From Solirubrobacterales bacterium (GTDB taxonomy: Bacteria; Actinomycetota; Thermoleophilia; Solirubrobacterales; 70-9): a DNA stretch of 44,955 nt. Both the position numbers and the translations under genes were made by a program. Within the stretch, counting starts at the first letter, position 1; the number at the start of each line of letters is the position of its first letter. The stretch is taken from contig DASZUH010000205.1 in the NCBI GenBank assembly GCA_035547715.1, positions 1-44,955 on the forward strand. The letters are read 5' to 3'. Below are positions 26,632 to 43,337 of the stretch, in pieces. Below the pieces are notes generated by a model that saw only the letters and a list, made by a program, of their open reading frames with translations, was not told the origin of the DNA and ran no database searches.

Positions 26632-27254
26632 GCGCCTACGTCCGCGACGGCGCCGAGATCTACCGCCGCTCGTTCGCGATGATCCGCGCGGAGGCCGACC
26701 TGGAGGGCCTCGATCCGGTCCTGGAGCGGGTCGTCGTCCGCATGATCCATGCCTGCGGGATGGTCGATCTCCTCGACGACGTGGCCGCCTCGCCGGGCTT
26801 CGCGACGGCCGGCGAGGAGGCGCTCCGCGCGGGCGCGCCCATCCTCTGCGACACGACGATGGTCGCCTCCGGCGTGACGCGCTCGCGCCTTCCGGCCGAC
26901 AACGAGGTGGTGTGCACCCTCTCCGAGCCCTCGGTGCCCGATCTTGCCGCGCGCCTCGGGACGACCCGCACCGCGGCGGCGATCGAGCTCTGGCGCGAGC
27001 GGTTGGGCGGTTCGGTGGTGGTCGTCGGCAACGCCCCGACTGCCTTGTTCCGGCTGCTGGAGCTGGTCGAGGAAGGGGTCGCGCCTCCCGCCGCCGTGAT
27101 CGGGGTGCCGGTCGGGTTCATCGGCGCCGCCGAGTCCAAGCAGGCGCTCGCCGAGCACCCGGCCGGACTCGAGCACGTCGTCGTAGGAGGCCGTCGCGGG
27201 GGCAGCGCGATCGCCGCCGCCGCCGTCAATGCGTTGGCGAGCGCGGCCGAGTGA
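26628..27254 (+). CDS. cobH: precorrin-8X methylmutase
   Basis: [51 protein letters not shown] overlap upstream. Confidence 0.9.
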
Positions 27255-28726
27255 GCGGCAGGCTCTTCGGCGTCGGCGTCGGGCCCGGGGACCCGGATCT
27301 CCTGACCGTCAAGGCGCAGAGGATCATCGGGGCGGTCGACGTCATCGCCTACCCGAACGCGCGCCACGGCCGCAGCGTGGCGCGCGGCATCGCGGCCCCG
27401 CACTTCCGTGGCGACCAGATCGAGGTGGCGCTCGAGTACCCGGTGACAACCGAGGAGACCGATCACCCCGGCGGCTACGAGGCCGCGATCAGTGAGTTCT
27501 ACGACGCCTGCGCAGGGCAGCTGGCCGAGCACCTCGACGCCGGGCGCGACGTCGCCGTCCTCTGCGAGGGCGACCCGTTCTTCTACGGCTCCTATATGTA
27601 TCTGCACGAGCGCCTCTCACCCCGGTATCCGACCGAGGTGATCCCCGCCGTCACCTCGTTCAGCGCCGCGGCCGCCGCCGCGGGCACCCCGCTGGTGCGC
27701 CGCGACGACGTGCTGACGATCCTGCCCGGGACCCTGCCGCCCGAGACGCTGGCGGCGCGCCTGCGGAGCAGCGACGCCTCGGTGGTGATCAAGCTCGGCA
27801 GGCGCTTCCCCGGTGTGGCCGAGGCGATCGAGCGGGCCGGCCTGTCCGAGCGGGGGATCTACGTCGAGCGGGCCGGCAGCGAGGCCGAGCGGGTGGCGCC
27901 CCTGAGGGAGGCGGGGGAGAAGGTGCCCTACATGTCTTTGGTGCTGGTCCCGGGCGGCGAGCCCGCGGCGCCGGCCGACCGGCCCGGGCGGGTGAGTGTG
28001 GTCGGCCTCGGCCCGGCGGGGCCCGACTGGCTGACGCCGGAGGCCCAGGCCGAGCTGGCGGCGGCCGAGGAGATCGTCGGCTATGAGACCTACATCGCCC
28101 GCGTCCCCGCGCGTCGGGGGCAGCGCCGCCACGCCACCGACAACCGGGTCGAGACCGAGCGCGCGCGCCATGCGCTGGAGCTCGCCGCGCGGGGCGCGCG
28201 GGTGGCGGTCGTCTCCTCGGGGGACCCGGGGATCTTCGCGATGGCGGCGGCCGTCCTCGAGGTCGTCGACGGCGACGCGACGTTCGCCGACGTGGAGCTG
28301 CGGATCGTCCCCGGCCTCTCGGCGATGCAGGCGGCGGCGGCCAGGGTAGGGGCGCCGCTCGGCCACGATTTCTGCGTCATCTCGCTCTCCGACCGGTTGA
28401 AGCCGTGGGAGGCCATCGAGCGAAGGCTGGACGCCGCCGGCGCGGCCGATTTCGTCCTCGCCCTCTACAACCCGGCCTCGAAGTCGCGTCGCGAGCAGCT
28501 CGCGCGCGCGATCGAGGTGCTGCGCCGCCACCGCGACACGGCGACGCCGGTCGTCGTCGCCCGTGCCGTCGGGGCGCCCGAGGAGTCGGTCGCGGTGACG
28601 ACGCTGGGGGAGCTGGACCCGGGCGTCGTCGACATGCGCACGCTGCTGATCGTCGGCTCCTCCAACACCCGCACGATCGCCGGGCCTGTGCCGCGGGTCT
28701 ACACGCCCCGGAGCTATCCGAGTTGA
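27251..28726 (+). CDS. cobIJ: fusion: precorrin-2 C20-methyltransferase (CobI) + precorrin-3B C17-methyltransferase (CobJ)
   Basis: Two tandem tetrapyrrole-methylase domains ([24 protein letters not shown] and [25 protein letters not shown]). GTGA overlap upstream. Confidence 0.85.
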
Positions 28727-29445
28727 GCCCGCACCCAGCGCAGGGCCGCCTCGACCGAGCCCTCGGTGGGGACGTCCGGCCGGGGCGGTCGCCGCACCAC
28801 GATCACCGGCAGCCCCCGCTCACGGGCGACCTCGAGCTTGGCCTCGGTATGGGTGCCGCCGCTGTCCTTGGTGACGAGGAGATCGACCCCATGTCGCTCG
28901 ACCAGCGAGCGCTCACCGTCGGGCGTGTAGGGGCCCCGGTCGAGCAGCAGCTCGTGGTGAGGCGGGAGCGGCCCGTCGGGCGGATCCACGCAGCGGACCA
29001 GGAACCACGCCTCCTCGACGCCGGCGAACGATGCCAGGCCCTGGCGGCCCGTGGTCAGCAGGACCCGCCGGCCGAGCCCGTGGATCGCCGCGGCGGCCTG
29101 GTCGAGGTCGGGGACCCAGGTCCAGCGGTCGCCGGGACGCTCGCGCCAGCCCGGACGCTCGAGCCGCAGCAGCGGCACCCCTGCCGTGGGAGCCGCTTGC
29201 GCCGCGTTGGCCGATATTCCCTCCGCGAAGGGATGGGTGGCGTCGACGACCGCGTCGACCTCGTGGTCGTCCAACCAGCGGACCAGCCCGCCGGGGCCGC
29301 CGAAGCCGCCGATCCTCACCTCGCCTACCGGCAGGCGCGGGTTGGCGACGCGCCCGGCGAGCGAGGAGGTGACCTCGACGCCCGAGGCGTCGAGCTCCGC
29401 CGCGAGCTCGCGCGCCTCCGCCGTGCCCCCGAGGACCAGGATCAT
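28714..29445 (-). CDS. cobK: precorrin-6A reductase
   Basis: MILVLGGTAEAREL...GGFGG..DATHPFA are CobK motifs. Its 3' end overlaps the convergent cobIJ end by 13 nt. Confidence 0.85.
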   Translation of the reverse strand: MILVLGGTAEARELAAELDASGVEVTSSLAGRVANPRLPVGEVRIGGFGGPGGLVRWLDDHEVDAVVDATHPFAEGISANAAQAAPTAGVPLLRLERPGWRERPGDRWTWVPDLDQAAAAIHGLGRRVLLTTGRQGLASFAGVEEAWFLVRCVDPPDGPLPPHHELLLDRGPYTPDGERSLVERHGVDLLVTKDSGGTHTEAKLEVARERGLPVIVVRRPPRPDVPTEGSVEAALRWVRAQLG

Positions 29446-29468
29446 GCCGTCACCCGCGGGCCCCGACG

Positions 29469-30242
29469 ATGAGGAAGCTGCTCCTGATCGGCATCGGTGC
29501 GGGTGATCCCGAGTACGTCACGGCCCAGGCCGCGCGGGCACTCGGTGAGGTCGACGTGTTCTTCGTCGTGGACAAGGGCGGCGATGTCAGGGACCTGGTG
29601 GCACTGCGCAGGCTCCTCCTGGAGCGCTTCGTCGAGAGTCCGTCGTACCGGATCGTAGAGCTCCCTGATCCGCCTCGCGACCGCGCCGCGGCCGCCTATC
29701 GGGCGGCGGTCGAGGACTGGCGCGAGCGACGCGCCCAGGTCTGGGGCGCCGCGCTTCGTGAAGAGCTCGAGGAGGACGGAGTCGGTGCCTTCCTCGTCTG
29801 GGGCGACCCCTCGCTCTACGACAGCACCATCGACGTGGTCGAGCGCATCCACGGGCGCGGCGAGATCGCCTTCGACCACGAGGTGATCCCGGGGGTGAGC
29901 AGCGTCCACGCACTCACCGCCCGTCACCGGATCCCCCTCAACCGGGTCGGCGGCGCGGTGCAGGTCACCACCGGGCGCCGCCTGGCGAGGCTCGGCTGGC
30001 CCGAGGGCGTCGACGACCTGGTCGTGATGCTCGACGCCGACTGCTCCTTCGAGGCACTGGACCCCGAGGGGCTCGAGATCTACTGGGGCGCCTACCTGGG
30101 GACGGCGGACGAGCTGCTCGTGTCCGGCCCGCTCGGCGAGGTCGCCGGCGAGATCCGGCGCGTCCGCGCCGAGGCGCGGGAGCGGAAGGGGTGGATCATG
30201 GACACCTACCTGCTGCGACGCCGCGAGCAGGGCGGCGCCTAG
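29469..30242 (+). CDS. cobF: precorrin-6A synthase (deacetylating)
   Basis: LLLIGIGAGDPEYVT..VWGDPSLYDS..IPGVSS; a tetrapyrrole methylase of CobF length and layout. Only 23 nt separate it from the divergent cobK start. Confidence 0.8.
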   Translation: MRKLLLIGIGAGDPEYVTAQAARALGEVDVFFVVDKGGDVRDLVALRRLLLERFVESPSYRIVELPDPPRDRAAAAYRAAVEDWRERRAQVWGAALREELEEDGVGAFLVWGDPSLYDSTIDVVERIHGRGEIAFDHEVIPGVSSVHALTARHRIPLNRVGGAVQVTTGRRLARLGWPEGVDDLVVMLDADCSFEALDPEGLEIYWGAYLGTADELLVSGPLGEVAGEIRRVRAEARERKGWIMDTYLLRRREQGGA

Positions 30243-30354: not shown

Positions 30355-30550
30355 GCCCTCGGAGGAGCTTCGAGGGTGTAGGATCGCCGCGCCGTCAGGG
30401 GAACCCGGTGCGAATCCGGGGCTGACCCGCAACTGTCACCGCAGAGTGAATTCCACCCGTCTTCGGACGGGTCAAGGCCACGGCCCATCGCAGGCTGGAA
30501 GGCCGGAAGGAACGTCGACGCGGAAGCCAGGACACCTGAGGGCCCAACGC
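30355..30550 (+). promoter_or_regulatory. cobalamin (B12) riboswitch controlling the BtuFCD-like importer
   Basis: GTCAGGGGAACCCGGTGCGAATCCGGGGCTGACCCGCAACTGTCACC ... GGAAGCCAGGACACCTGA, carrying GGTG.GAA.CC, a GCAACTG variant of GCCACTG, and the B12 box AGCCAGGACAC. The ORF-track start at 30446 lies inside it, so that start is rejected. Boundaries are approximate. Confidence 0.8.
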
Positions 30551-30577
30551 GAAAAAAACCGACGCGAGGAGTCGTCC

Positions 30578-31663
30578 ATGCCAGTCGTGCCCAACGGTCG
30601 CCGGAGTATCCCGAGGACCTGGATCCGCCCGGGCATCGCCATCCTGCTCCTCTGCATCGGCCTCGTCGCGGTCGCCGGCTGCGGCTCCTCATCGAGCTCG
30701 GCCTCATCTTCGACGTCGGAAAGTGACACGACCTCGGGCGCCGAAACCACCTCTGGCGGCGAATCGACCACCGGGGGCGCGACCGTCGTCAACTGCGGCG
30801 TCCACGTCCACGTCGACCAGCCGCCGACGCGTGCGATCTCGCTGAACCAGGGCGCGACCGAGCTGATGCTGACGCTCGGCCTCCAGAACTCCATGATCGG
30901 CACCGCCTACCTCGACGACTCGGTGCTGCCCTCGCTCCAGAGCGCCTACGAATCGGTCCCGGTGCTGTCGAAGGAATACCCCTCCGCCGAGAGCTTCCTG
31001 GCCGAAGAACCCGACTTCGCGATCGCCTCATACGAAAGCGCATTCGGGACCAAGGAAGGGGTCGGCACCCGCAGCTCGCTGGAAAAGCTCGGGATCGCGA
31101 CGTATCTGATGCCCGACGGATGCGCGAACGCGAACGAGAACGTGCCGTGGACGTTCGCCGACAACTTCAACGAGATCCGTCAGGTCGGCACCTTGTTCGG
31201 CGTCGAGGAAAAGGCGCAGGAAGTGATCGCCCGGCAGCAGGCCGAACTAAAGGAAGCGGTCGGTTCCGGGCCCGCTCCGGGCAAGGGCCACACGGTCATG
31301 TGGTGGGACTCCGACGACAAATCGCCGTTCGTCGGTACCTGCTGTGGGGGCCCGGGGCTGATCATGAAGACGGTCGGTGCGACCAACGTCTTCGCCGGCG
31401 TGAAAGGCAACTGGCAGAACGTCAACTGGGAAGCCGCGATCGCCAAGGATCCCGAAGTGATCGTCCTGATCGACGCCGGCTGGGACACCGCCAAGTCGAA
31501 GATCAAGTTCATCGAAGGCGACCCCGCGCTCCAGTCGCTGCCGGCGGTCAAGGAGAAGCACTTCGTCATCATCCCCTTCTCGGACTCGACCCCGGGCGTG
31601 CGTAACGTCGACGGGGTCAAAAAGCTGGCCGCCGGGCTCCGCAAGATCTATCCGAGCGGGTGA
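30578..31663 (+). CDS. ABC transporter substrate-binding lipoprotein, FecB/BtuF (periplasmic binding protein 2) family, probable corrinoid binder
   Basis: ATG 30578 is preceded by GAGGAG. Signal peptide with lipobox LVAVAGC, followed by a Ser/Thr-rich linker. Context is riboswitch plus FecCD-type permease plus ATPase. Confidence 0.8.
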   Translation: MPVVPNGRRSIPRTWIRPGIAILLLCIGLVAVAGCGSSSSSASSSTSESDTTSGAETTSGGESTTGGATVVNCGVHVHVDQPPTRAISLNQGATELMLTLGLQNSMIGTAYLDDSVLPSLQSAYESVPVLSKEYPSAESFLAEEPDFAIASYESAFGTKEGVGTRSSLEKLGIATYLMPDGCANANENVPWTFADNFNEIRQVGTLFGVEEKAQEVIARQQAELKEAVGSGPAPGKGHTVMWWDSDDKSPFVGTCCGGPGLIMKTVGATNVFAGVKGNWQNVNWEAAIAKDPEVIVLIDAGWDTAKSKIKFIEGDPALQSLPAVKEKHFVIIPFSDSTPGVRNVDGVKKLAAGLRKIYPSG

Positions 31664-32688
31664 CCCGCGGGCGCCTGCGCCCCTGGATACCAGCCCTCGT
31701 CGGGCTGGTCTTGGCGCTGGGCTCGATCATCGTCGCCTCGGCGATCGGACCCTCGTCGGTCGGTCCCGCCGACGTCTGGGCGGTCGTGCTCAACAAGCTC
31801 GGGCTGGCCTCCCATCGCGACGTGAGCCCGATCATGCAGGCGATCGTCTGGGACCTCCGGATGCCGCGGACCGTGCTGGCCGCCCTCGTGGGAGCCGGGC
31901 TCGCGGTCGCCGGCGCGGTGATGCAGGCGGTCACGCGCAATCCGCTTGCCGACCCCTACCTGCTCGGCCTCTCCTCGGGCGCCGCGCTCGGCGCGGTGGT
32001 GGTGCTCGTCCTGGGGGTCGCGGCTGGTTCACTCGGCGTCGCCGGCGGAGCCTTCATCGGTGCGCTGGTCGCGTTCGGGTTCGTGATCGCGATCGCGGTC
32101 TCCGGCCGGCGCCTGGATCCGGCCGTCACCGTGCTCGCCGGGGTCGCGGTCGGCACCATCTGTGCGGCGCTCACCTCGCTGATCGTCGTCGTGGCCGCCA
32201 ATCCGTTCAAGACCCGCGAAGTCGACTACTGGCTACTCGGATCGCTGGCCGGGACGACCTGGGGCAACGACCTGGTCGCGGCGCCTGTCGTGGTCGCCTG
32301 CGTCGGCGTCTGCATCGGGTGCGCGCGATCCTTGAACGCGATGGCATTCGGGGACTCCGACGCCAGGGCGCTGGGTGTCGACACGACGCGCCTGCGCTGG
32401 ATCCTCCTGGTCACCTGCGCCCTGATGACGGGCGTCCTGGTCTCACTCTCGGGTGCGATCGGATTCGTCGGCCTGCTGCTGCCGCATGCGGCGCGGATGA
32501 TCGTCGGTCGCGACAACCGGCGCCTCCTGCCGGTGTCGGCGCTGGCAGGAGCCATCTTTCTCGTCTGGGCCGACACGGTGGCCCGGACCGCCCTGCAACC
32601 GCGCGAAATCCCGGTCGGGGTCGTCACCGCGCTGGTCGGCGCGCCGGCGTTCGCGTTGCTGATCCGACAGCGCAGGCGCGCACCCTGA
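31660..32688 (+). CDS. FecCD/BtuC-family ABC permease
   Basis: About 9-10 TM segments, with WDLRMPRTVLAALVGAGLAVAGAVMQ and GAIGFVGLLLPH motifs. GTGA overlap upstream. Confidence 0.85.
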   Translation: MTRGRLRPWIPALVGLVLALGSIIVASAIGPSSVGPADVWAVVLNKLGLASHRDVSPIMQAIVWDLRMPRTVLAALVGAGLAVAGAVMQAVTRNPLADPYLLGLSSGAALGAVVVLVLGVAAGSLGVAGGAFIGALVAFGFVIAIAVSGRRLDPAVTVLAGVAVGTICAALTSLIVVVAANPFKTREVDYWLLGSLAGTTWGNDLVAAPVVVACVGVCIGCARSLNAMAFGDSDARALGVDTTRLRWILLVTCALMTGVLVSLSGAIGFVGLLLPHAARMIVGRDNRRLLPVSALAGAIFLVWADTVARTALQPREIPVGVVTALVGAPAFALLIRQRRRAP

Positions 32689-33485
32689 TGCTCGCCGCCA
32701 CGAACATCACCTGGAGCGCCGGCGGTGCGCTGATCCTCGACGGTGCCAGTGTGCAGGTGGACGCCGGCAGACTGGTGGGCCTGATCGGCCCCAACGGCTC
32801 GGGCAAGACCTCGCTGTTGCGCTGCGCCGCCGCACTCACCGCGGCCGACTCAGGGGAGGTGATGCTGGACGGCGCGGACGTTCGGGCGATGCGTCGGCGT
32901 GCGATCGCCCGGCGGCTCGCTTTCGTCGAGCAGGATGCCGACACCGATGTCGAGCTCGAGGTACGCGATGTGGTGCTGCTCGGCCGCACGCCACACCGGC
33001 GGGCCTTCGAGCCCGATACCGCGGAGGACCTGTCGCTCCTCGCCGTCGCCTTGGAGCGCACCGGGCTCACCGGCCGCGAGCATCAGTCGTGGCATACCCT
33101 CTCGGGAGGGGAGCGGCAGCGCGCACGGATCGCCCGGGCGCTCGTCCAGCAGCCGGAGGTGCTGTTGCTCGATGAGCCGACCAACCACCTCGACGTCGCC
33201 CATCAGCTCGAGCTCCTGGATCTCGTGCGCTCGCTCGAGCTGGCGACGGTGGCCGCCCTGCACGACCTCAACCTCGCAGCGGCCTTCTGCGACGAGATAG
33301 TCGTCCTCGCCAAGGGACGGGTCGTCGCCACCGGCCCGCCGCCGGAGGTGTTGACCGCCGAGCTGATCGACGACGTCTACGACGTCGAGGCGATAGTCGG
33401 GGAGCATCCCGTGACCGGCAGGCCGACGATCGTGTTCACCCCGAGGACACGCGGTCGCGGTCGGCAAACCGCCGGAGGTGATTGA
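32688..33485 (+). CDS. ABC transporter ATP-binding protein (FecE/BtuD-like)
   Basis: Walker A GPNGSGKTS, signature LSGGERQR and Walker B LLLDEPTNHLD. ATG 32688 shares one nucleotide with the upstream TGA. Confidence 0.9.
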   Translation: MLAATNITWSAGGALILDGASVQVDAGRLVGLIGPNGSGKTSLLRCAAALTAADSGEVMLDGADVRAMRRRAIARRLAFVEQDADTDVELEVRDVVLLGRTPHRRAFEPDTAEDLSLLAVALERTGLTGREHQSWHTLSGGERQRARIARALVQQPEVLLLDEPTNHLDVAHQLELLDLVRSLELATVAALHDLNLAAAFCDEIVVLAKGRVVATGPPPEVLTAELIDDVYDVEAIVGEHPVTGRPTIVFTPRTRGRGRQTAGGD

Positions 33486-33772: not shown

Positions 33773-33845
33773 TGGCCGCAGGCTCGAGTTTCGAACCAAC
33801 TACCTCTCGTTTTCTCGTTACGAGCGCTTCACAATTAGGCCTGCG
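33773..33845 (-). pseudogene. degenerate tRNA-like element
   Basis: On the minus strand, a 7-nt terminal complementarity (CGCAGGC ... GCCTGCG) is followed by G-CCA. It has a T-loop-like GTTGGTTCGAAAC and a perfect 5-bp stem (CTCGT/ACGAG) closing a 9-nt loop. The T-stem does not pair and the D-arm region is too short (14 nt). It shares a 22-nt core with the fragment at 33999-34040. Confidence 0.35.
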
Positions 33846-33998: not shown

Positions 33999-34040
33999 TG
34001 GGCACGGCTGGTTTCGAACCAGCGACCTCTCGCGTGTGAA
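33999..34040 (-). repeat. 3'-part copy of a tRNA-Val(CAC)-like gene (anticodon loop to discriminator); att-type scar
   Basis: The minus strand reads TTCACAC-GCGAG-AGGTC-GCTGG-TTCGAAA-CCAGC-CGTGCCC-A. This gives an anticodon loop with CAC, the 3' anticodon stem strand, a variable loop, a perfect T-arm, the acceptor 3' strand and the discriminator. No matching 5' half exists upstream (no CTCGC and no GGGCACG in position), so it is not an intact tRNA. Confidence 0.6.
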
Positions 34041-34246: not shown

Positions 34247-34495
34247 ATGTCGAAGACCCGCACGACCGTCACCCTCGACGAGGACGTCTTCCGCGCCGTC
34301 AGGATCAAGGCCGCCCGCACCGGCAAGCGCGACTCGCAGGTGATCGAGGAATCGCTGCGGCGCGACCTCGGCCTCGACGACCTGGCCGAGATCTGGGCGA
34401 AGGTCACGCCCGCCGACGAGGAGGAGGGCATGGATCTCGCCGGCGAGGAGCTGCGCGCGATGCGCAAGGAGAGGCGTGACGAGGGCGGTACTTGA
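34247..34495 (+). CDS. ribbon-helix-helix (CopG/VapB-like) antitoxin
   Basis: 82 aa. MSKTRTTVTLDEDVFRAVRIKAARTGKRDSQVIEESLR is a typical RHH N-terminus. Overlaps the downstream PIN gene by 20 nt. Confidence 0.8.
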   Translation: MSKTRTTVTLDEDVFRAVRIKAARTGKRDSQVIEESLRRDLGLDDLAEIWAKVTPADEEEGMDLAGEELRAMRKERRDEGGT

Positions 34496-34886
34496 CCCGG
34501 GCGTCCTCGTCTCGGCGCTGATCACCCCCACGGGCACCCCGGCAAGGCTTCTGACCGCCGGCCGCGGCGGAAGCTTCGAGCTGATCGTCTCGGCCCTGCT
34601 GCTCGAGGAGCTCGGATCCGTCCTGCGGCGGGAGAAGTTCCGCCGCCACGTCGACCTCGACGTCGTCGACCGATACCTCGCGCTTCTGCGTCGGGACGCG
34701 GTGACGGCCATCGACCCGGCGGGACCGCCGCCGGTCCGCTGCGCCGACCCCGACGACGACTACCTGATCGCCCTGGCGCACGCCGGCGCCGCCGCGCTCG
34801 TCTCCGGTGACCGGCATCTGCTCGACCTCGCCGGGCGGATCCCGGTCTTCACCCCAGCGGAGTTCCTCGCCGCGCACGGCGGATAG
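34476..34886 (+). CDS. PIN-domain toxin (putative toxin-antitoxin system toxin component, PIN family)
   Basis: AVLDPGVLVSALI...LIVSALLLEELGSVL...DPDDDYLIALA...LVSGDRHLL shows the spacing of the conserved acidic residues of this PIN subfamily. GTG start at 34476. Confidence 0.8.
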   Translation: MTRAVLDPGVLVSALITPTGTPARLLTAGRGGSFELIVSALLLEELGSVLRREKFRRHVDLDVVDRYLALLRRDAVTAIDPAGPPPVRCADPDDDYLIALAHAGAAALVSGDRHLLDLAGRIPVFTPAEFLAAHGG

Positions 34887-34988: not shown

Positions 34989-36125
34989 ATGGACAAGGAG
35001 ACACTCAACGATCCGGCAGAGATGCGCACCGCGGTGGTGGACAGCCTGGTCCGGCAAGGATTTAGCGTGGAGGACGGGCAGATCCGCGCGCCTGAGATGA
35101 GCTCAAAGGCTGCGCTGCGAGCGTTGCACCGCGAGGCCGTAGAACATCAACGTGAGCGCTCGAAGCCCGGATTGCGCCGCCACGAGGAGTGGCTGCTTGG
35201 GCAGATTGCGGACGGCTCAGATCTGCTGCCGAGTGCGATCTGCCCGAGCCTAGTTCTCGTTACTCCCGAGTCCAAGGAGGAGCTTCTGTTTCGATGGGCG
35301 CGCCTGCATTGGTCCATCCCGACGTCGGCTGGCTACGGCCGTCGGCTTCGCTTCCTTGTGATGGACGAGGCTCACGGAAAGCTGATGGGCATTATCGGCC
35401 TCGCAGATCCGGTGTTCGGTCTGAGTAGCCGCGATCTCTGGGTCGGCTGGGACGCGCAAGCTCGTCGGGAGCGGCTCCATCAGGTGATGGACGCCTTCGT
35501 GCTTGGCGCGGTTCCACCTTACAACCAGCTGCTCGCAGGCAAGCTTGTTGCAATGCTCGCAACCTGCGCAGAGATTCAGACCGCCTACCGTGAACGTTAC
35601 TGCGGTGTCGCTTCCGTTATCAGCGGTCGCGACAGGGAGGAGCCTCTCGCAATGGTTACGACGGCTTCGGCATTGGGGCGCTCTTCCGTCTACAACCGTC
35701 TCCGCATGGACGATCGCAAAGTAGCTATCAGCGTTGGATTCACCAAGGGTTCGGGAGATTTTCAGTTCGCTAATGGCCTATACGAGGATCTAACCGCGTA
35801 TGCCAGGTTGCACTGCACTCCGACCGCCAAGCACAGTAAGTGGGGAAGCGGATTCCGAAATAGGCGAGAGGTCGTCAAGAAGGCCCTACGGCATCTCGGA
35901 CTGGGGGAGGCGCTTCTCTACCACGGAGTCCGACGCGAGGTCTTTGTGTTTCCGATGGGGGAGAACGCGGCAGCCGCGCTTACGTATGGCGAAAGTCTGC
36001 GGCCGTACGCAGAGACGGCAGCCGACATGGCGGAATTCTGGAAGCAGCGATGGATGATTCCGCGAGCGATCCGGCGAGAGGACTACAAGTCCTTCCGACC
36101 CGAGAACTGGCGCCTGTGGACTTGA
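34989..36125 (+). CDS. DUF4338-domain protein (DruA-like)
   Basis: From memory, WARLHWSIPTSAGYGRRLRFLVMDEAHGKLMGIIGLADPVFGLSSRDLWVGWDAQARRERLHQVMDAFVLGAVPPYNQLLAGKL follows the DUF4338 pattern: hYLG..G..LRYLV..g..lg.lgF..aa....RD.wIGW....R...L..v.nn.RFLilP....NLaSk. No search was run. Confidence 0.65.
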   Translation: MDKETLNDPAEMRTAVVDSLVRQGFSVEDGQIRAPEMSSKAALRALHREAVEHQRERSKPGLRRHEEWLLGQIADGSDLLPSAICPSLVLVTPESKEELLFRWARLHWSIPTSAGYGRRLRFLVMDEAHGKLMGIIGLADPVFGLSSRDLWVGWDAQARRERLHQVMDAFVLGAVPPYNQLLAGKLVAMLATCAEIQTAYRERYCGVASVISGRDREEPLAMVTTASALGRSSVYNRLRMDDRKVAISVGFTKGSGDFQFANGLYEDLTAYARLHCTPTAKHSKWGSGFRNRREVVKKALRHLGLGEALLYHGVRREVFVFPMGENAAAALTYGESLRPYAETAADMAEFWKQRWMIPRAIRREDYKSFRPENWRLWT

Positions 36126-36585
36126 CCCAATCCGAGCTATCAACCTCCCAACCTTTCACCGACCTGCCTGCTGGGCTCGTAGACGAGCTCATCGACGGGA
36201 CCGGTGAGATTGGGACGCGGGTCCTGGGAGGATTCGAGGAGCTGCGCGCGCGACGTGCCGAGCTTCGCTCTGGTCTCGAGAGTGAGGGCATCCTTGGTTT
36301 CGAGGGAGATCTCCCCGACGCCGAGCCGGCGACCGTAGCCGCGGTCGATGGCTCGTATGCAGTCGATCGCCTCTTGACGACCGACTTGTGCGTCTGCGCC
36401 GCGCGGCGCCCGGGATGATGGAGCCGTATCCCATTTACATGGCCGACCGCATGGTCAAGTCCGTCGCGACCGCGCTCCCGGCGATCCGCCAGATTGTGAC
36501 GCAGCAGGCTTGCGACAACTACGCGGGCGATGTCAGCGAGGTTTTCTTCGGCCTACACAGCTATCGATCGGAGGCAGGCGCTTGA
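36116..36585 (+). pseudogene. NurA-like nuclease remnant: N-terminal and C-terminal motifs only, in two frames (ORFs 36116..36418 and 36415..36585)
   Basis: ORF 1 has ATVAAVDGSYAVDRLLTTDLCVCAA, which resembles the first NurA motif (archaeal FVAIDGGS..). ORF 2 has MMEPYPIYMADRMVKSVA, which resembles the last NurA motif (GYPFPLLKAHMDV). The roughly 200-250 aa that normally lie between them are absent, and the two parts are in different frames joined at an ATGA overlap (36415-36418). Confidence 0.45.
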
Positions 36586-36587
36586 CC

Positions 36588-38330
36588 ATGGACAACGGAA
36601 TGAGCGAGCTGGTCGCCCAGTCCGAGCGACTAGGGGTCGTTGGTTCCCCGTCGACCACGGCTGAGCTCTCAATGGATGTGCTCGGGACCGCCGTGCAAAA
36701 AAAGCTTGTGGGCGAGCTCGCCTTTCTTCAATTTCCTCAGGACGGCCGCGAGCACTATGCCCTGGGCCAAATCACCGAGGTTGAGTTACGCAACGTTTGG
36801 CACGAGGACCCTACGATTCGCAGCCTGATTCGACAGCGCGGTGGTGTTGAGCAGATTTCCGAGCGCCAGGACACCCATCTTGGCCGCATGACGCTTAGCG
36901 CAATCTTTGCTGCCGACCCGTCCGGTCGTTACCAACCCGCGTTCCTCGGCACCGTTCCGTCGACCGGCGGCAACATCTACCTCGTTCGCGATGGCCTGTT
37001 GGAGAAGCTGCTCGAGCCCTTCAAAGACGAGCTTTTCTACCTCGGTCGGGTTTACGGCTCTACTCCGCGTCTGCCGATGTGGTTTAAGCATTTCGGGTCA
37101 GGAGCTGGCGGCGCTGGCGAGGCCTATCACCTTGGCATCTTTGGCAAGAGCGGCTCCGGTAAGTCTGTGCTCGCCAAGCTGATTCTCCTGGCCTATGCGC
37201 GTCATGCCGAAATGGGCGCGATCATCGTCGATCCACAGGGGGAGTTCGCGCGCGATCTTCGTGAGGGCGCACCGCCACACGAGGGCATGCAACTGCCGAT
37301 CCGTCAGACCCTTGACGGACTTGGCCGCGACACCGTGGTGCTGGGCGTCTCGGATCTTGTGCTGGATCGCTGGGAGATCTTCGAGGAGATCCTCTTTGAG
37401 TCGTCGTTGTTCGAGCGAGTTGCCATGCGGCGTGCCGAGAATCGTCGGCTTGCCTGCTCTGAGGTAGTCCAGCACCTCAAACGACGCAAAGTGAAGTTGG
37501 TCGACCTTCACAAACGGGAGAGTCTCGACGTTCTCTGGAGTACGTTCGACGACGAGAAGGCTCGCCAGCGCGTCTATAAGGACAAAGGAACGCGGGAACT
37601 GTTCGAGGCGCAGATAGCCGCGCTCGATCTGGATGTGATGCATAGCGAGATCTGGGCGCCAATCGGTGAACTGTTCAATGACTCTCGATCTGGTGCACGC
37701 AAGGTTAACTGGGCGATCGATAGTGCGCTGAACGACAAGAAGATCCTGGTGATTGATCTCTCGGGAAAGGACAGCGAGGGGCTTTACTGGACGTCGCGTA
37801 TACAGGCGCTCACCATTCGCAAGGTCCTCCAAGACCTGCAGCGACGCGCTGAGGACGCGTACAAAGAGGGCGAGAGCCTGAACACGCTCGTTCTCATCGA
37901 TGAGGCTCATCGTCTGGCCCCTCGCGAGAAGCCGGACGATCAGGTTGAGGAGCGGGTCCGATCGCAACTGATCGACGCTGTCAGGACCACCCGCAAGTAC
38001 GGACTGGGTTGGATGTTCATCTCTCAAACGCTGGCGAGCTTGCATCCCGAGATTCTCAACCAGCTCCGGATCATGTTCTTTGGCTTCGGGCTCGCGTTGG
38101 GTCAGGAGTACGAGGCAGTGGCCCGACTCATTGGTTCGCGTGGCCCGGCGCTAGACCTCTACCGCCTGTTTCGCGATCCGCATTCGTCATTCAGTGTCGA
38201 GAGTCGTGAGTATTCATTCATGACCATCGGGCCGGTCAGTCCGCTGTCGTTCGCGGGCACCCCTCTATTTCTGAACGTGTTCAATAATTCTGCCGACTTC
38301 CTTGGCGCGAACCGAGGACTCCAGACCTAG
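36588..38330 (+). CDS. HerA-like (FtsK/HerA superfamily, DUF87-type) ATPase
   Basis: Start at ATG 36588 (MDNGMSELV), 2 nt after the preceding stop. The N-terminal region is HAS-barrel-like (GVVGSPSTTAELSMDVL...ALGQITEVEL). Walker A is GIFGKSGSGKS, Walker B is LVLIDEAHRLAP, and C-terminal FISQTLASL is also present. 581 aa, the size of the HerA partners in SIR2-HerA and DUF4297-HerA systems. Confidence 0.8.
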   Translation: MDNGMSELVAQSERLGVVGSPSTTAELSMDVLGTAVQKKLVGELAFLQFPQDGREHYALGQITEVELRNVWHEDPTIRSLIRQRGGVEQISERQDTHLGRMTLSAIFAADPSGRYQPAFLGTVPSTGGNIYLVRDGLLEKLLEPFKDELFYLGRVYGSTPRLPMWFKHFGSGAGGAGEAYHLGIFGKSGSGKSVLAKLILLAYARHAEMGAIIVDPQGEFARDLREGAPPHEGMQLPIRQTLDGLGRDTVVLGVSDLVLDRWEIFEEILFESSLFERVAMRRAENRRLACSEVVQHLKRRKVKLVDLHKRESLDVLWSTFDDEKARQRVYKDKGTRELFEAQIAALDLDVMHSEIWAPIGELFNDSRSGARKVNWAIDSALNDKKILVIDLSGKDSEGLYWTSRIQALTIRKVLQDLQRRAEDAYKEGESLNTLVLIDEAHRLAPREKPDDQVEERVRSQLIDAVRTTRKYGLGWMFISQTLASLHPEILNQLRIMFFGFGLALGQEYEAVARLIGSRGPALDLYRLFRDPHSSFSVESREYSFMTIGPVSPLSFAGTPLFLNVFNNSADFLGANRGLQT

Positions 38331-38366: not shown

Positions 38367-39287
38367 CTAGCCGACATTCCGCCAGCCCGCCACCCTGCGT
38401 GAGGGGCGGGCGAAGCGCGGCTGGTAGTAGAGGTCGTCGGCGATCTCGACCAGTTTCGTTGCGAGGTCGTCGCTCTCGGCGGCGAGCGGCCCCGAGCTGC
38501 CAAACGCATCCGCGGCAAGCCCGGCGTCGTGGAGACCTTCTCGTACCTCTGCTGCGTTTACTTCCCTGAGCACGCCCTCCGCAAGCAGTCGTTCCACCCG
38601 CCGGGCGGTGAAGGCGTTCCGTGAGCAGACCCGCTCGACCGCCATGACGGTGTCGGCGCTGAGTCGAGCGCCAATGTCCTTCGCGAAGCGCCCGACGGTC
38701 TCCGGCGCCCGTCGTTTGACCTCGTCCGCGTCGACGAAGAGCCGTTCGGTTTGCTCGGGCCGGAGCACGTAGACCCTCTGGTCGACGACAGCCACCTCGG
38801 CGTCGTAGTCGAAGCTCAACAGCGGCTCCTCGACTGGACGGAGCTCGGTCCCCGCTAGGACGGCGTACCACTTGTTGGTCAGGCCGTAGGTCGGGGCGCG
38901 CCTGCGGATGACGACGGTATCGGTGCCGGCCTCTGCCAGACGAAGCGCGTAGAAGCTCCAGCGTCCTCCCTCTATTTCCTTCGCCCCGAGCGGCTCAGGG
39001 ACGCCGCTGGCCCGCACGGAGGCGACGGTGCGCTCGAGGCTCCAGGGCGCCTTCTCCTGGTAGTGGGAGTCGAAGCCATGGAGGCTACCGGCCAAAACCT
39101 CGCCGTCCTCGGGGCGGTCGGTTGGGTGGAAGGGGACCTCCTCTGATCCCTCGCACCGCTCTTTCACTCCGCGAACGATGTCGGCCAGCTGGGCCCTTGC
39201 CTTTTCGGAGAGGTCGACGTGGCCGAAAGCGGGCTCGCCTCTTGGCGGCCGCCGCCCCAGTATCGCCCGTACGTCATCACCCGGCAT
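38367..39287 (-). CDS. kwaB: KwaB-like protein (DUF4868), Kiwa defence system component
   Basis: 306-aa soluble protein. RWSFYALRL...VVIRRRAPTYGLTNKWYAVL...LLSFDYDAEVAVVDQRVYVLRPEQTERLF follows the DUF4868 pattern as I remember it. Its start overlaps by 11 nt the end of a 4-TM protein gene, which is the Kiwa architecture. Confidence 0.6.
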   Translation of the reverse strand: MPGDDVRAILGRRPPRGEPAFGHVDLSEKARAQLADIVRGVKERCEGSEEVPFHPTDRPEDGEVLAGSLHGFDSHYQEKAPWSLERTVASVRASGVPEPLGAKEIEGGRWSFYALRLAEAGTDTVVIRRRAPTYGLTNKWYAVLAGTELRPVEEPLLSFDYDAEVAVVDQRVYVLRPEQTERLFVDADEVKRRAPETVGRFAKDIGARLSADTVMAVERVCSRNAFTARRVERLLAEGVLREVNAAEVREGLHDAGLAADAFGSSGPLAAESDDLATKLVEIADDLYYQPRFARPSRRVAGWRNVG

Positions 39288-39849
39288 CTCCCGCTCCCGT
39301 CATGTTCTCTCGGCTCGGTATGTAGGTAACTCCTACCGCGCGCACAACCGTAACATCGCCTTCCGGAAGTGAAGCGTCCTCGACCAGCACGATGGTACGT
39401 TCGCCAGCCACCGTCGCCCGGCCAACCCTGAACCCCAACACATATATAAGTGGGTTCGCGACGGAGAGGTCGCTGACGAAGGCCACGAGGAGGATAAGGG
39501 CGGCGCAGATGCCATAGGCGACCAAATCACCGGAGCTCGGATCTCCGGCGGCGATCACGGGCAGAAGCAGCGAAACGATATATCCGGTGACCTCTGAATC
39601 GATCGGCTCGATATTGGTGACCAACGCGGTGCGCGGCTGGTGGCGTGGAAGCCAGCCCAAGAAAAGAGTCCAGGCGCCGAGCCCGATCATCCCAACAGCG
39701 AGTGCGACCCAGCCTGCCGGGTGCGGGATCGCCCGAGCGGCGACGATCAGAGCGATTGGCGAGTAGGCGCCGAGGAGCAGCACCAGGCGGCCCGCGAGCG
39801 GGCCCTGTCCGTGGCGCCGGGACTTGGCTCTTCTCGGTTGGTCCACCAT
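39277..39849 (-). CDS. kwaA: KwaA-like four-TM membrane protein, Kiwa defence system component
   Basis: Start chosen at ATG 39849 (MVDQPRRAK), giving 190 aa. Four hydrophobic segments (LVLLLGAYSPIALIVAA, WVALAVGMIGLGAWTLFLGW, GYIVSLLLPVIAAG, LVAYGICAALILLVAFV) precede a soluble tail. The first 50 codons of the ORF-track version lack coding character. Confidence 0.55.
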   Translation of the reverse strand: MVDQPRRAKSRRHGQGPLAGRLVLLLGAYSPIALIVAARAIPHPAGWVALAVGMIGLGAWTLFLGWLPRHQPRTALVTNIEPIDSEVTGYIVSLLLPVIAAGDPSSGDLVAYGICAALILLVAFVSDLSVANPLIYVLGFRVGRATVAGERTIVLVEDASLPEGDVTVVRAVGVTYIPSRENMTGAGDAG

Positions 39850-40190
39850 CCGATCGACGGTCGCACTCGATTCGGACGGGACGAGGGGCGAGAATCCAAA
39901 AGAGATCCCTGACGATGGCCGAGTGTCGGTGACTGCGCAAATTATTCGAGTGACTGACCGCCGGGCCCATGAGACTTGGACCCAGGGCGCAAAAGCCATC
40001 CTGTCTCGCTCGGCGTGAGCGCTGACGCCGTGTTCGGGGTCCCACGATTGCCTGGCACGCTGTCCGGCTGTCTGCCTCCCATATCCTCCGACCGTTTAAG
40101 TAAGATCGAGGCGCTCAAGGAACTTTCCGTCGCCGTCGTGGTTCACCTCGATGATTCATCGGCCGGTCATTCTCGAGCTCTCGGCTGACT

Positions 40191-43100
40191 GTGATCGATC
40201 CCGCGACAATTTTGCTCAATGGCCTGACCGCGAGTCAGGCCAAAGCCGTCCGGTCACCGCGGCGCGAGTTGATGGTCGTCGCCGGAGCGGGATCGGGCAA
40301 GACGGATGTGATGGCCAGGCGCATCGCCTGGTGGGTTGCCGTCGAAGGTGTGCCGAAGAGCCAGATCGTCGCCTTCACCTTCACCCGGCGGGCAGCGGAG
40401 GAGATGCAGTTCCGAATTAGGCAGTTCATCGAGCGGGTGACACCGGCCGGAGAAGACGTAACGCTCGGGGACATGTACGTCGGGACCATCCACGGCTTCT
40501 GCGTGAAAATGCTCCGTGACCTGGCCTCGGACGAGTACCACAACCTCGATGTTCTCGAGGATGGGGCGCGTGTGGCGCTCGTGCAGCGCGGCTATCACGG
40601 CACCCTCGGTCTCCCGAAGCTGCAATCGGCGATGAGCGCCGAGAGCGGCAAAAAGGTCGGCCAGTTCGCGACGATCAGCCGCTTCCTGAAAGCGTACGAC
40701 CTCCTAAACGAGTACGACGAGCTCGAGGTCGTGCTGCCGACGCCGACGCCTCCCGCGCGCCTTGGCGATGAGCGCGATTGGTGCCATGGCGCCGAGATGA
40801 AGACCGACGTCGGAGTCGGCGACGTGGCCGAGTCCTTCGAGCTCGCCGCCGGTCGCCTCTACGCCTTCGAGCGCTGCCGCCGCTTCCTCGACCACAGCAC
40901 CTCACAGTCGGAGCTACTGCGGTTGCTTCGCCGTGACGAGGGGTTGCTCGAAGCCCTACGAGAGCGAACCTCACACCTTGTCGTCGACGAGGTCCAAGAC
41001 ATCAACCAGGTGCAGAGTCGCGTAATAGAGGCGATCCTGGGTGAGACCGGACACCTGACCTGCGTGGGAGACCATCGTCAGGCGATCTTTGCCTGGCGCG
41101 GCGGTCGAGTCGAGATCATGGCCGACATCTTCGAAGAGCTGAGCGCCGAACCCGACGGTGAGGTGGTCGAGTTGACGCACAACTTCCGCTCGACCCCTCG
41201 AATCATCGAGATCGCCAACCGCTGGGCGTCCTCGATTGGTCCCGTGCAGTCGATGAGTAGTCCTGACATGGAGCACGGCCGAAGCTCCCGCGACGACGAA
41301 GCCGATGGCCACATCGCCGCGCTGGCATTCGAGGAGCGCACCGCCGAGGCCGCGTGGATAGCCGAGAAGATCCTCACCCTCGCCGACCCGCAGGCAGGCC
41401 TAGGCGCCGCGATGGACATCGCCGACGGCGAGGAGAGGGGCCTGACCTTCGCCGACATCGCGGTCCTCATTCGCTCGGGGACCGATGCGCGCACCTACAT
41501 GAAAGCGCTGCAGTCCAAGGGGATCCCGGCGGTGTTCACCGGCGGCGACCTCTTTTCCCAGCCCGAGATCCTTTTTCTGATGGCGGCCCTCGCCGCGATG
41601 GCCGGTATTGAGAAGTTCTACGGGAACCCCAAAGATCCGCGCTCCCTCCCGGGCCGGATCGCCCAAGTCCTCGACTGCGAGCCGACCCCAGAGGCCGTTT
41701 TACATTCCGCCGCCGCCGCGCTTGCGTCCGACGGCCTTCTTGTCGCCGACGACGTGGTCGAGCGGCTGTTGCTGGCGGCAAGGCTCTTCCGGGCCCGTAT
41801 CGAGAAGGAGACCGGCGCCTCCAAAGCCGAGAGGGACATACTGGCAACGCCCGACCTAGGTGCATTTCTGGGCAGAGCCGGAAAGGTCCGGCGGGTCTTC
41901 CCCCAAGAAATCCTTCACCTGATCCTCTCCGAGGCTGGGGTTCATGCCTGGGATGGCGCCGGTCCCCGCGGCGACACCGCCATGTTCCACCTCGGAGCAC
42001 TGAGTGCCTTGGTGCAGAGTATGGAGACGCCGGGCTGGACCTCGCCGTCGGACTTCACCTACCAGGTGGTTGCACTCGGCAACTGGGCCCCTCAGCAGGC
42101 CCGCCTGGAAGAGGCGCCGCTCCTCGAGCAGCCCGAAGCCGTGACGATCAGCACGGTGCACTCGGTAAAGGGGGCGGAGTATGCGGCCGTCTTCCTCGCC
42201 GACGTCTGCTCGCGACGCTTCCCGAGCTCCTTCGCCAAACGGATGGAGAGCCTGCCATTCGAGTCGCCGGTCTTCGACAAAATCGATCCGGCCGAACTCG
42301 CCGACAACGAGAACCTCGACAACGAGCGGCGTCTCATGTATGTCGCCCTGACTCGCGCGGAACGGTTCCTCGCAGTTACCTGCTCCGGGAAGTCGTCCTC
42401 CTTTTTTCAGCCCGTCCAAGGCCTGGTCGAGGAGGTCGGTGGCGAGACTTCGGACGAGAAGGCCGCGATGGGCCCGGTCCGGTTGGCCGAGGCCGCCCCC
42501 AAACGGGAGAGCCGCCTCGTAAGTACGTTCTCGGATCTGCGCTATTACCTCGAGTGCCCGCACGACTTCTATCTGCGCAAGGTGCTTGGGTTTGCGCCGA
42601 CGATCGACCAGGCCTTCGGCTACGGGCGTGGCGTCCACAATTTGCTGCGGGCGGTTCACTCCGAACCGGCGCGTTGGTCGGAGATTGCAACGAAGGATCC
42701 GGGACAATTGCGCCCCGAGCTCGAGAAATTGGTCGATCGCGGTCTCTTCTACCTCCGCTACACGACCGGAGAGCCGCTTGAACGGATGCAGAATCGTGGT
42801 CTCGAGATCGTCACTGACTACATCCTGAACTACGCTGGCGAGCTGGCCGAGCTCGAATTCGAGCCGGAGCGGGAGTTCGAGACGCTGATTGAGGAGGAGC
42901 AGGTGCTCATCTCCGGCGCGATTGATCTGGTCAGGCACGACGATCCTCCCACCGTGACCTTGGTCGATTTCAAGTCCGGTGAACCTGAATCAGATGTCAG
43001 CTCAAAACTCGACCGCGAGGAGATGCAGCTGCAGATCAGCCTCTACGGTGTCGCCGCGAAGAAGGAGCTCGAGTACAAACCCGAACAGGGTCTGGTTCGG

Positions 43101-43337
43101 TATTTAGGTGAGGCCGATCCCGACCGACGTGAGCTCAAGGTCCCCCTCGATGACGACGCGCTGGCCGAGGCGCGCCACGTCGTCGCCGGGACCGCCCGAT
43201 CGATCAAAGAACGGACGTTCAACTCCGGCCCGGCGCGTAAGCCGCGCGACAATAAATTGCACATTCGCTGCGAAGAGTGCGACTTCCTACGCTTCTGCGG
43301 ATTGCCAGCCGCCGAGACCGCACGCCAGCGCTCATAG
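40191..43337 (+). CDS. UvrD/PcrA-type SF1 helicase fused to a C-terminal Cas4/RecB-type PD-(D/E)XK nuclease with a 4-Cys Fe-S cluster signature
   Basis: Helicase motifs: LNGLTASQAKAV (Q), AGAGSGKT (I), FTFTRRAAEEM, LVVDEVQDI (II), VGDHRQAIFAWRGG (III), NFRS, ISTVHSVKGAEY (V) and YVALTRAE (VI). Nuclease domain: YLECPHDFY (Cys 1), GAIDLV, LVDFKSG (D..K), QISLYG (QxxxY) and CEECDFLRFC (Cys 2-4). Confidence 0.85.
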   Translation: MIDPATILLNGLTASQAKAVRSPRRELMVVAGAGSGKTDVMARRIAWWVAVEGVPKSQIVAFTFTRRAAEEMQFRIRQFIERVTPAGEDVTLGDMYVGTIHGFCVKMLRDLASDEYHNLDVLEDGARVALVQRGYHGTLGLPKLQSAMSAESGKKVGQFATISRFLKAYDLLNEYDELEVVLPTPTPPARLGDERDWCHGAEMKTDVGVGDVAESFELAAGRLYAFERCRRFLDHSTSQSELLRLLRRDEGLLEALRERTSHLVVDEVQDINQVQSRVIEAILGETGHLTCVGDHRQAIFAWRGGRVEIMADIFEELSAEPDGEVVELTHNFRSTPRIIEIANRWASSIGPVQSMSSPDMEHGRSSRDDEADGHIAALAFEERTAEAAWIAEKILTLADPQAGLGAAMDIADGEERGLTFADIAVLIRSGTDARTYMKALQSKGIPAVFTGGDLFSQPEILFLMAALAAMAGIEKFYGNPKDPRSLPGRIAQVLDCEPTPEAVLHSAAAALASDGLLVADDVVERLLLAARLFRARIEKETGASKAERDILATPDLGAFLGRAGKVRRVFPQEILHLILSEAGVHAWDGAGPRGDTAMFHLGALSALVQSMETPGWTSPSDFTYQVVALGNWAPQQARLEEAPLLEQPEAVTISTVHSVKGAEYAAVFLADVCSRRFPSSFAKRMESLPFESPVFDKIDPAELADNENLDNERRLMYVALTRAERFLAVTCSGKSSSFFQPVQGLVEEVGGETSDEKAAMGPVRLAEAAPKRESRLVSTFSDLRYYLECPHDFYLRKVLGFAPTIDQAFGYGRGVHNLLRAVHSEPARWSEIATKDPGQLRPELEKLVDRGLFYLRYTTGEPLERMQNRGLEIVTDYILNYAGELAELEFEPEREFETLIEEEQVLISGAIDLVRHDDPPTVTLVDFKSGEPESDVSSKLDREEMQLQISLYGVAAKKELEYKPEQGLVRYLGEADPDRRELKVPLDDDALAEARHVVAGTARSIKERTFNSGPARKPRDNKLHIRCEECDFLRFCGLPAAETARQRS

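Follow-up and report, generated by a model that had tools for sequence, protein, structure and literature searches.

A cross-phylum DruA–NurA–HerA operon, apparently undescribed and probably defensive, persists as a decayed copy in a Solirubrobacterales genome

A 44,955-nucleotide (nt) stretch of a Solirubrobacterales bacterium assembly (GCA_035547715.1, contig DASZUH010000205.1, positions 1–44,955 of the forward strand; hereafter the window) carries intact genes for a DruA-like (DUF4338) protein and a HerA-type ATPase, separated by the remains of a gene for a NurA-type nuclease (Table 1). By gene order and co-variation across its relatives, druA–nurA–herA is a real conserved operon, translationally coupled, horizontally mobile and self-contained, and the window holds what its alignment to intact relatives identifies as a recently decayed copy of this three-gene unit. 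We further propose that the intact triad is probably an anti-phage or anti-plasmid system with DruA gating or complementing a NurA–HerA DNA-end shredder, the defensive role being argued from genomic context.

The first line of evidence is the spread of the HerA protein, a search with which returned more than 3,000 relatives, typically 57–60% identical and from many phyla. In a scan of one genome per species (185,579 species genomes), this HerA subfamily was found in 295 (~0.16%), distributed over many bacterial phyla and one Ferroglobus archaeon, with cross-phylum identities of 54–59%; such rarity together with such similarity between phyla points to horizontal transfer, not to vertical descent. 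Cultured carriers of an intact operon include Thermoleophilum album (FNWJ01000002.1, record positions ~145.1–149.2 kb), Tepidiphilus olei J18, Limisphaera sp. 4302-co and Thermanaerothrix solaris. Many named carriers belong to genera that we take to be thermophilic or moderately so (Thermoleophilum, Tepidiphilus, Thermovorax, Thermanaerothrix, Limisphaera and Pyrinomonas), and Thermaceae, Chloroflexus, Ferroglobus, Nitrospira calida and Tepidimonas presumably extend this list, to which sampling bias may contribute.

The neighbourhoods of the three HerA relatives inspected first all contained DruA–NurA–HerA. Among the best 80 genome loci reached through HerA (of the 295 species), the three genes kept the same order and strand wherever upstream DNA was present, save for four exceptions that look like decay or insertion: a druA split by an insertion (L016), a split or frameshifted nurA in Thermovorax subterraneus (L056), a Mutator transposase in place of druA and the 5′ end of nurA in Pyrinomonas (L077), and, in a metagenome-assembled genome of Ferroglobus sp., a gene for a 1,054-amino-acid (aa) Sacsin-type ATPase/NOV_C protein lying between druA and nurA (L070:1622–8826). 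Modal spacing is −4 nt from druA to nurA and +2 or +3 nt from nurA to herA. When open reading frames (ORFs) within ±10 kb of 84 loci were clustered all against all, three universal families emerged and no universal fourth gene, the other widely shared clusters being short ORFs inside the triad genes that we read as shadow frames. The pairwise-identity matrices of the three proteins correlate (r 0.72, 0.60 and, for NurA–HerA, 0.87), and in 500 label permutations the observed value was never reached. Approached from the other end, 62 of the 76 metagenomic DruA loci with enough downstream DNA carry the triad, to the extent that the contig covers it. An earlier sequence-only reading of the window had proposed a hybrid of a DruA-like protein with NurA and HerA; the hybrid exists as a coupled operon in these relatives (80 loci; 62 of 76 metagenomic loci), whereas in the window itself it is broken.

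The break lies between druA and herA, where positions 36107–36585 hold two short frames, remnants of a 391-codon nurA, neither of which has a Pfam or PADLOC match. As reference we used L001, the closest relative with a long contig (HerA 81% and DruA 75% identical; NurA 391 aa). In tblastn, residues 1–99 of its NurA align to 36107–36403 at 81% identity in frame +2 and residues 332–391 to 36403–36582 at 90% identity in frame +1, and blastn places window positions 35022–36402 on L001 5741–7121 and 36401–38284 on L001 7817–9700. Because an out-of-frame internal deletion of ~695 nt has left two frames, the window's nurA is, on this alignment, a deletion pseudogene with two thirds of the gene length gone. 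Short TGCGC(C/T)GCG-like repeats, coding Cys-Ala-Ala, occur at both ancestral breakpoints, which suggests that the segment was lost by microhomology-mediated deletion. The sequence-only reading had assumed a single NurA-like frame that overlaps the druA stop by 10 nt at a candidate GTG (36116) and ends 2 nt before herA. The overlap and the 2-nt gap are both present; the single frame is not, since the frame opened at 36116 stops at 36418 and the 2-nt gap to the herA ATG follows an ORF in a different frame, 36388–36585. We also considered the middle frame as a short NurA and rejected it in favour of two out-of-frame remnants of the longer gene.

All 77 full-length NurA orthologues are ~390 aa long, and many acidic or histidine residues conserved in at least 95% of them fall within the lost segment; the invariant positions, candidates for the RNase-H-like catalytic site, are D81, E103, E110, E144, D159, D209, D235/D236, E308, D346 and H153/H263, and the 5′ remnant in the window retains the VDGS aspartate motif. 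The orthologues match the Pfam NurA domain PF09376 at 32–35 bits (cut-off 21; E ~1e-8) over profile positions 2–253 of 254, whereas neither window fragment matches it; profile searches support the DUF4338 and HerA/DUF87 assignments in the window itself and the NurA assignment in intact orthologues only. With its nuclease gene disrupted by this deletion, the window copy is very probably inactive despite its intact druA and herA ORFs.

The 378-aa protein picked out earlier by its DUF4338 motifs, all of which are present, is a member of the family: it matches Pfam PF14236 at 349.5 bits (E 1.9e-104; cut-off 27) over profile positions 4–295 of 297 and the PADLOC DruA model at 7e-107. It is 75% identical over its full length to the L001 orthologue and, over 96% of its length, 37% identical to the DruA of a canonical druABCDE operon (P. 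putida pKF715A); against PF14236, triad DruAs (window, P0143, P0197 and P0239) score 349–389 bits compared with 272 for a canonical Druantia type I DruA (L088). Public records label triad DruAs ‘Druantia anti-phage system protein DruA’, though no Druantia system accompanies them.

An AlphaFold2 (AF2) model of DruA built with 35 homologues is confident (mean predicted local distance difference test score (pLDDT) 89; predicted TM-score 0.87). Nearly all of its Foldseek matches in the Protein Data Bank (PDB), including all the top ones, are GNAT-fold acetyl- or acyltransferases, among them KKT23, bacterial GNATs, TmcA/NAT10, FeeM, GCN5 and EsaI, with statistics that are weak throughout (E 0.018–0.2, probability at most 0.97, TM-scores of 0.4–0.57 on the target). 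At the sequence level, DruA has no link to acetyltransferase Pfam families even at E ≤ 10, no solved homologue in the PDB and no signature of known GNAT toxins. The modelled fold, by itself, weakly suggests a GNAT-like core behind a helical N-terminal region; given the weak Foldseek E-values and the lack of a sequence match, catalytic activity remains putative. A published analysis assigned DUF4338 to the GNAT domains (PMC10853773), and our model agrees with it. Many polar residues are invariant across the family, some of them in the low-confidence modelled loop HWSIPxSxGYGRR and others at the strand–helix junction GAVPPYxxLLxGK, and the pattern is enzyme-like, again with catalysis putative; R118/R119, Y178, K185 and R290 are among the invariant positions.

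The ATPase, read earlier as 581 aa and in fact 580 aa long, has the Walker A (GKSGSGKS, G186–S193) and Walker B (LIDEAH, D438–E439) motifs ascribed to it, both invariant in the alignment, and matches the Pfam ‘HerA central domain’ DUF87 (PF01935) at 39.3 bits (E 1e-9; cut-off 23.2). An invariant Q480 following a strand and invariant R466/R469 upstream of it are candidates for sensor-1 and the arginine finger, respectively, roles that would fit the HerA/FtsK-clade signature described in PMC10853773. The protein is 81–82% identical to its closest relatives and 54–60% identical across phyla; PADLOC HerA models match it weakly (5e-14 to 1e-8, at most 50 bits), and the PADLOC mad8 model at 1.4e-17. 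The AF2 model, confident in the ATPase core, retrieved nothing but HerA proteins from the PDB at E ≤ 1e-3 (34 matches), including the Thermococcus kodakarensis HerA–NurA complex, the Sulfolobus solfataricus and Deinococcus radiodurans proteins, DUF4297–HerA and SIR2–HerA; by sequence, the solved HerAs match at 1e-8 to 4e-3 over ~100 residues. Residues 1–190 are highly conserved, and pLDDT there is below 50, which makes the model unreliable for assigning a HAS-barrel.

Each part of the triad has counterparts in known systems, with differences that set the combination apart. In Druantia type I, too, the operon opens with a gene for a full-length DruA and includes one for a motor NTPase (DruE there, HerA here), and the Druantia DruB has a weak CoiA_N match hinting at a nuclease-like protein. 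The triad is not Druantia type I, because DruB–E are absent, as had been noted from the sequence: neither the window nor the 80 related loci contain DruB, DruC, DruD or the DUF1998 helicase DruE, no window protein or protein of the L006 triad operon matches the PADLOC models for DruB, DruC or DruD, and the related loci contain no large DEAD/DUF1998 helicase, a UvrD plus PD-(D/E)XK protein being the sole helicase nearby in the window. To our knowledge, how Druantia type I or its signature protein DruA works has not been published, and literature searches gave no mechanism.

With the NurA–HerA resection complexes of Sulfolobus, Thermococcus and Deinococcus, the triad shares the NurA domain, the HerA fold and a nurA lying immediately (2–4 nt) upstream of herA; it differs in being highly divergent in sequence, having an obligatory DruA, lacking linkage to mre11/rad50 and being patchily distributed and horizontally transferred. 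In the SIR2–HerA and DUF4297–HerA systems, too, the ATPase gene lies directly downstream of an effector gene, and their HerAs are the top structural matches; the triad instead has NurA as effector and DruA as a third component, its PADLOC scores (at most 50 bits) are far below membership, and no window or L006 operon protein matches SIR2 or DUF4297 in Pfam or PADLOC. Membership in MADS was rejected, as the mad8 match is partial and at the level of the ATPase (62 bits, profile 28–247 of 314), mad3 is faint and no other gene of mad1–mad8 is found.

The Thermus thermophilus element ICEth1 carries a Tth111II restriction endonuclease–NurA-like–TdtA–methylase operon on an integrase-bearing element, where it is required for DNA donation (‘transjugation’; PMC5365140). 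Compared by that gene-order description, its tdtA operon resembles the triad in pairing a NurA-like nuclease with a HerA/FtsK-family ATPase on a low-G+C integrative element, with flanking restriction and methylase genes that parallel the triads linked to Mod and Res genes (below), and it differs in lacking DruA and in its donation role. Some DndFGH systems have a DUF4338-GNAT domain fused to DndF and thus likewise combine DUF4338, a HerA/FtsK ATPase (in DndH) and a nuclease against invaders (PMC10853773), though there as a domain fusion within a three-protein complex that has a restriction-endonuclease effector; the triad has no DndF, DndG or DndH homologues. In PADLOC-DB v2, no model covers this NurA and the HerA matches are weak; none of the three proteins is represented by an NCBIfam family, and the searchable full-text literature describes no combination of DruA/DUF4338 with NurA/HerA. 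No named system has this gene set in PADLOC v2, NCBIfam or the open full-text literature (the newest DefenseFinder models and subscription papers lie outside that scope), and within it the triad is apparently an undescribed combination of known parts, as the sequence-only reading had supposed.

Part of the family carries accessory genes. A UvrD plus PD-(D/E)XK (RecB/AddA/Cas4-like) helicase–nuclease adjoins the triad in 14 of the 84 loci, a type-III-like N6/N4 methyltransferase (Mod) in 9 and a ResIII-type enzyme (Res) in 8, some copies of the last being fused to an S24 peptidase domain. Such extended forms (L006/L007:2927–16111, L177:4921–18952, L004:5661–17761, L085, L014 and L018) comprise the helicase–nuclease, a methyltransferase matching PADLOC MTase_III at 1e-117 and a ResIII protein of ~1,100 aa that carries a fused S24 (LexA-like) peptidase domain, sometimes with an RNase_T exonuclease or RadC in addition; the helicase–nuclease is fragmented or truncated in L082, L083 and L178. 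In two metagenomic loci (L102:4487–9580 and L174:991–3651), a ~350-aa protein without a Pfam match lies between druA and nurA.

DruA itself also occurs in other company. Eight of the 76 metagenomic loci (L097, L098, L101, L107, L145, L164, L169 and L170) have a DruA without NurA–HerA, 60–78% identical to triad DruAs and 63% to that of the window. Seven of the eight place it beside a ~850-aa Ser/Thr-kinase plus ORC/CDC6-like AAA+ protein (PF24389, E ~1e-38) and a ~368-aa protein with a faint HFX_2341_N match, in variable order (for example, L145:382–5214 and L164:618–5437); the genes are co-oriented and overlap druA in five loci and are divergent in L097 and L098, and L170 has only a fragment of the kinase–ORC gene, at a contig end. 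We considered the ~368-aa partner as a cryptic NurA and rejected it (hhalign probability 0.1%). The DruA–kinase–ORC/CDC6 operon is possibly another undescribed system. Since close relatives pair with a kinase–ORC/CDC6 ATPase instead of NurA–HerA, DruA can be regarded as a swappable module, one that by these neighbourhoods plugs into several NTPase or nuclease partners, NurA–HerA being the commonest within this DruA clade. The coupling of DruA to a NurA–HerA motor that had been read from the window is thus conserved, although not exclusive.

The surroundings of the triad are varied. In the closest relatives, druA is directly preceded by an integrase gene, ParD/ParE pairs lie immediately downstream of herA in two unrelated loci (L176 and L178), and transposases, Fic/RhuM, a deaminase, PNP_UDP_1 (a nucleoside phosphorylase family) with DUF4231, BrxC and restriction–modification (RM) genes occur near the triad elsewhere. 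Decayed copies are frequent (the window, L016, L056 and L077). Taken together, patchy spread, a G+C-deviant island, integrase, toxin–antitoxin (TA) and RM neighbours and frequent decay make the biology of the triad look like that of defence or mobile cargo.

In characterized complexes, a HerA hexamer with a NurA dimer as its cap threads DNA from a free end and degrades it (PMC9960219). By analogy, the NurA dimer and HerA hexamer of the triad would assemble into an ATP-driven machine that is loaded at free DNA ends and digests the DNA from there, an action established for archaeal and Deinococcus complexes; for the triad, we infer both complex formation and end degradation in vivo. DruA, with its GNAT-fold, acyltransferase-like core, would be a sensing, licensing or co-effector subunit that restricts the machine to invading DNA, such as linear phage genomes, replication intermediates or ends produced by a linked restriction enzyme. 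A more specific version, in which DruA is an active acyltransferase that marks a molecule of the invader (a DNA-bound protein or nucleic acid) or a subunit of the system and so licenses NurA–HerA, DruA then being the shared sensor or modifier of Druantia I, DruA–NurA–HerA, DruA–kinase/ORC–CDC6 and the DndF fusions, strikes us as speculative and unlikely.

Several observations weigh against a defensive DruA–NurA–HerA machine. The triad has no obvious component for discriminating self from non-self; the 115 immediate neighbour genes fall into 134 heterogeneous Pfam families that include housekeeping and metabolic genes; the GNAT call for DruA comes from Foldseek matches at E ≥ 0.018 without a sequence-level match; and the NurA orthologues score just 32–35 bits against Pfam NurA and, in a profile search of PDB sequences with hmmsearch, gave no true match to a solved NurA. 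In principle, the ~695-nt deletion in the window might have arisen as an artefact of assembly. Among 2.9 million viral contigs, just 4 have the triad, a count that we list here and regard as uninformative either way; a phage origin of the triad was rejected with so few viral carriers.

Other roles can be envisaged for the same genes. In an abortive-infection system, HerA would be the scaffold or activator, DruA a toxic GNAT effector acting on host tRNA or proteins and NurA an indiscriminate DNA-degrading enzyme, and the infected cell would die. HerA-scaffolded effector systems are established (PMC11472057; PMC11291478), and their structures resemble this HerA most closely in fold; DUF4338-GNAT fused to DndF has been read by the Aravind laboratory as a possible self-targeting co-effector acting on proteins (PMC10853773); TA genes are often adjacent; and the exchange of DruA among NurA–HerA, kinase–ORC/CDC6 and DruB–E would suit an effector or sensor cassette. 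NurA, however, is strictly conserved and co-varies with HerA (r 0.87), as expected of a primary effector, DruA lacks the sequence signatures of known GNAT toxins, its toxicity and its nucleoside triphosphate or coenzyme A binding are putative, and the linkage to RM genes and RecB-like helicase–nucleases in ~15% of loci points to DNA-targeting immunity. We hold abortive infection to be unlikely.

Integrases in front of druA in the closest relatives, Mod/Res genes flanking a subset, patchy cross-phylum spread with many thermophilic hosts and the ICEth1 NurA–TdtA precedent (PMC5365140) would all be expected if the triad were a DNA-processing or transfer module of an integrative element, benefiting the element and not host immunity. 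Yet integrases make up only 3 of the 115 immediate neighbours, and most loci have no other element-like genes or conserved ends. ICEth1 has no DruA, and the likeness of TdtA to HerA is taken from its description; TdtA is reported to be membrane-localized (PMC5365140), whereas no membrane or secretion component is linked to the triad, and such a transfer role seems to us quite improbable.

More improbable still is housekeeping-type end resection at double-strand breaks by a bacterial NurA–HerA, as in Deinococcus or Thermus, with an acquired regulatory acetyltransferase. NurA–HerA is an established resection machine (PMC9960219; also PMC3326311 and PMC5715905), and a RecB/AddA-like helicase–nuclease and RadC are linked to the triad in some loci. 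A repair function sits poorly, however, with genes found in so few species and yet so alike across phyla, a pattern indicating horizontal transfer, or with G+C-deviant islands that have TA, integrase and RM neighbours; copies decay readily, and no Mre11/Rad50-type family recurs among triad neighbours across the related loci. Chance juxtaposition in this genome only, for which nothing speaks beyond the broken window copy, is excluded by the order, strand and overlap kept in about 80 genome and 62 metagenome loci and by the co-variation of the three proteins.

Within the window, G+C content is 0.72–0.81 until ~34 kb and 0.59–0.67 from there to the end, in line with the lower-G+C island described by the sequence-only reading, and the druA/nurA/herA region falls within the low-G+C part. 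The high-G+C part, with a cobalamin biosynthesis cluster and a Fec-type importer (Table 1), is core genome and ends where the island starts. Exactly at the G+C drop are two direct repeats (33788–33809 and 34011–34032, read on the minus strand; spacing 223 nt) that resemble a tRNA T-arm and 3′ acceptor end (GGTTCGAAACC...); ARAGORN found no intact tRNA, and the repeats are possible att-site remnants at the left boundary of an island extending beyond the window end.

The neighbours named earlier, a TA pair, Kiwa and a helicase–nuclease, fared unevenly. The PIN-domain toxin is clear, and the 82-aa ORF that precedes and overlaps it, which has no family match, is presumably its antitoxin. The UvrD/PD-(D/E)XK protein is equally present. 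The Kiwa assignment is tentative: the KwaA-like protein matches PADLOC at 4.7e-10 and NCBIfam at 9e-5, far under the cut-off, the KwaB-like protein matches PADLOC only at 2.4e-3, and neither has a Pfam match. An Rfam match to the small RNA SorX (39662–39729, minus strand) scores 31 bits, below the gathering score of 46.6 (E 2.6e-4); it falls within the kwaA-like coding sequence, is probably due to chance and was set aside. In PADLOC, the UvrD/PD-(D/E)XK protein matches GajB/RTasHel best; it shares its architecture with the triad-linked helicase–nucleases, to which it is just 26–29% identical. As a fourth component here it was rejected as unproven, in view of that identity, its absence from the closest relatives and the opposite-strand Kiwa-like pair that intervenes between it and the triad.

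Table 1 Features of the window discussed in the text (window coordinates; aa, amino acids)
Feature	Position	Strand	Remarks
Cobalamin biosynthesis cluster	10714–29472	+	CobD, CobQ, CobN, Mg-chelatase-like/VWA, CobB, CobU-aminotransferase
Fec-type ABC importer	30446–33485	+	Periplasmic-binding/permease/ATPase; 3′ of the cobalamin cluster
PIN toxin with preceding overlapping 82-aa ORF	34247–34886	+	Immediately upstream of druA
PIN-domain toxin	34476–34886	+	PF13470, 2e-16; TIGR00305
druA-like gene	34989–36125	+	378 aa, intact; DUF4338/DruA domain over residues 40–331
nurA 5′ remnant	36107–36418	+	Codons 1–99; likely start GTG 36116; out-of-frame run to stop 36416–36418
Deletion junction	36395–36410		~695 nt lost (nurA codons ~100–331), not a multiple of 3
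nurA 3′ remnant	36403–36585	+	Codons 332–391; EPYPxYxADRxVK motif region
herA-like gene	36588–38330	+	580 aa, intact; ATG start; DUF87
Kiwa-like gene pair (tentative)	38367–39999	−	Convergent with herA
UvrD-helicase plus PD-(D/E)XK protein	40191–43337	+	1,048 aa; AddA/RecB/Cas4-like

For the Solirubrobacterales genome itself, the finding is modest, a pseudogenised remnant in a defence-type island. The ‘Druantia’ labels on triad DruAs mislead censuses of defence systems. If the defence reading is correct, a three-gene system that joins DruA to the well-understood NurA–HerA pair would be a far simpler setting for finding out what DruA senses or modifies, the minimal triad would offer a tractable entry point to the mechanism of Druantia, and the HerA-centred defence systems would gain a NurA-based member. 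The exchange of DruA between NurA–HerA, kinase–ORC/CDC6, DruB–E and DndF suggests a reusable sensor or co-effector cassette, which bears on how defence systems are assembled.

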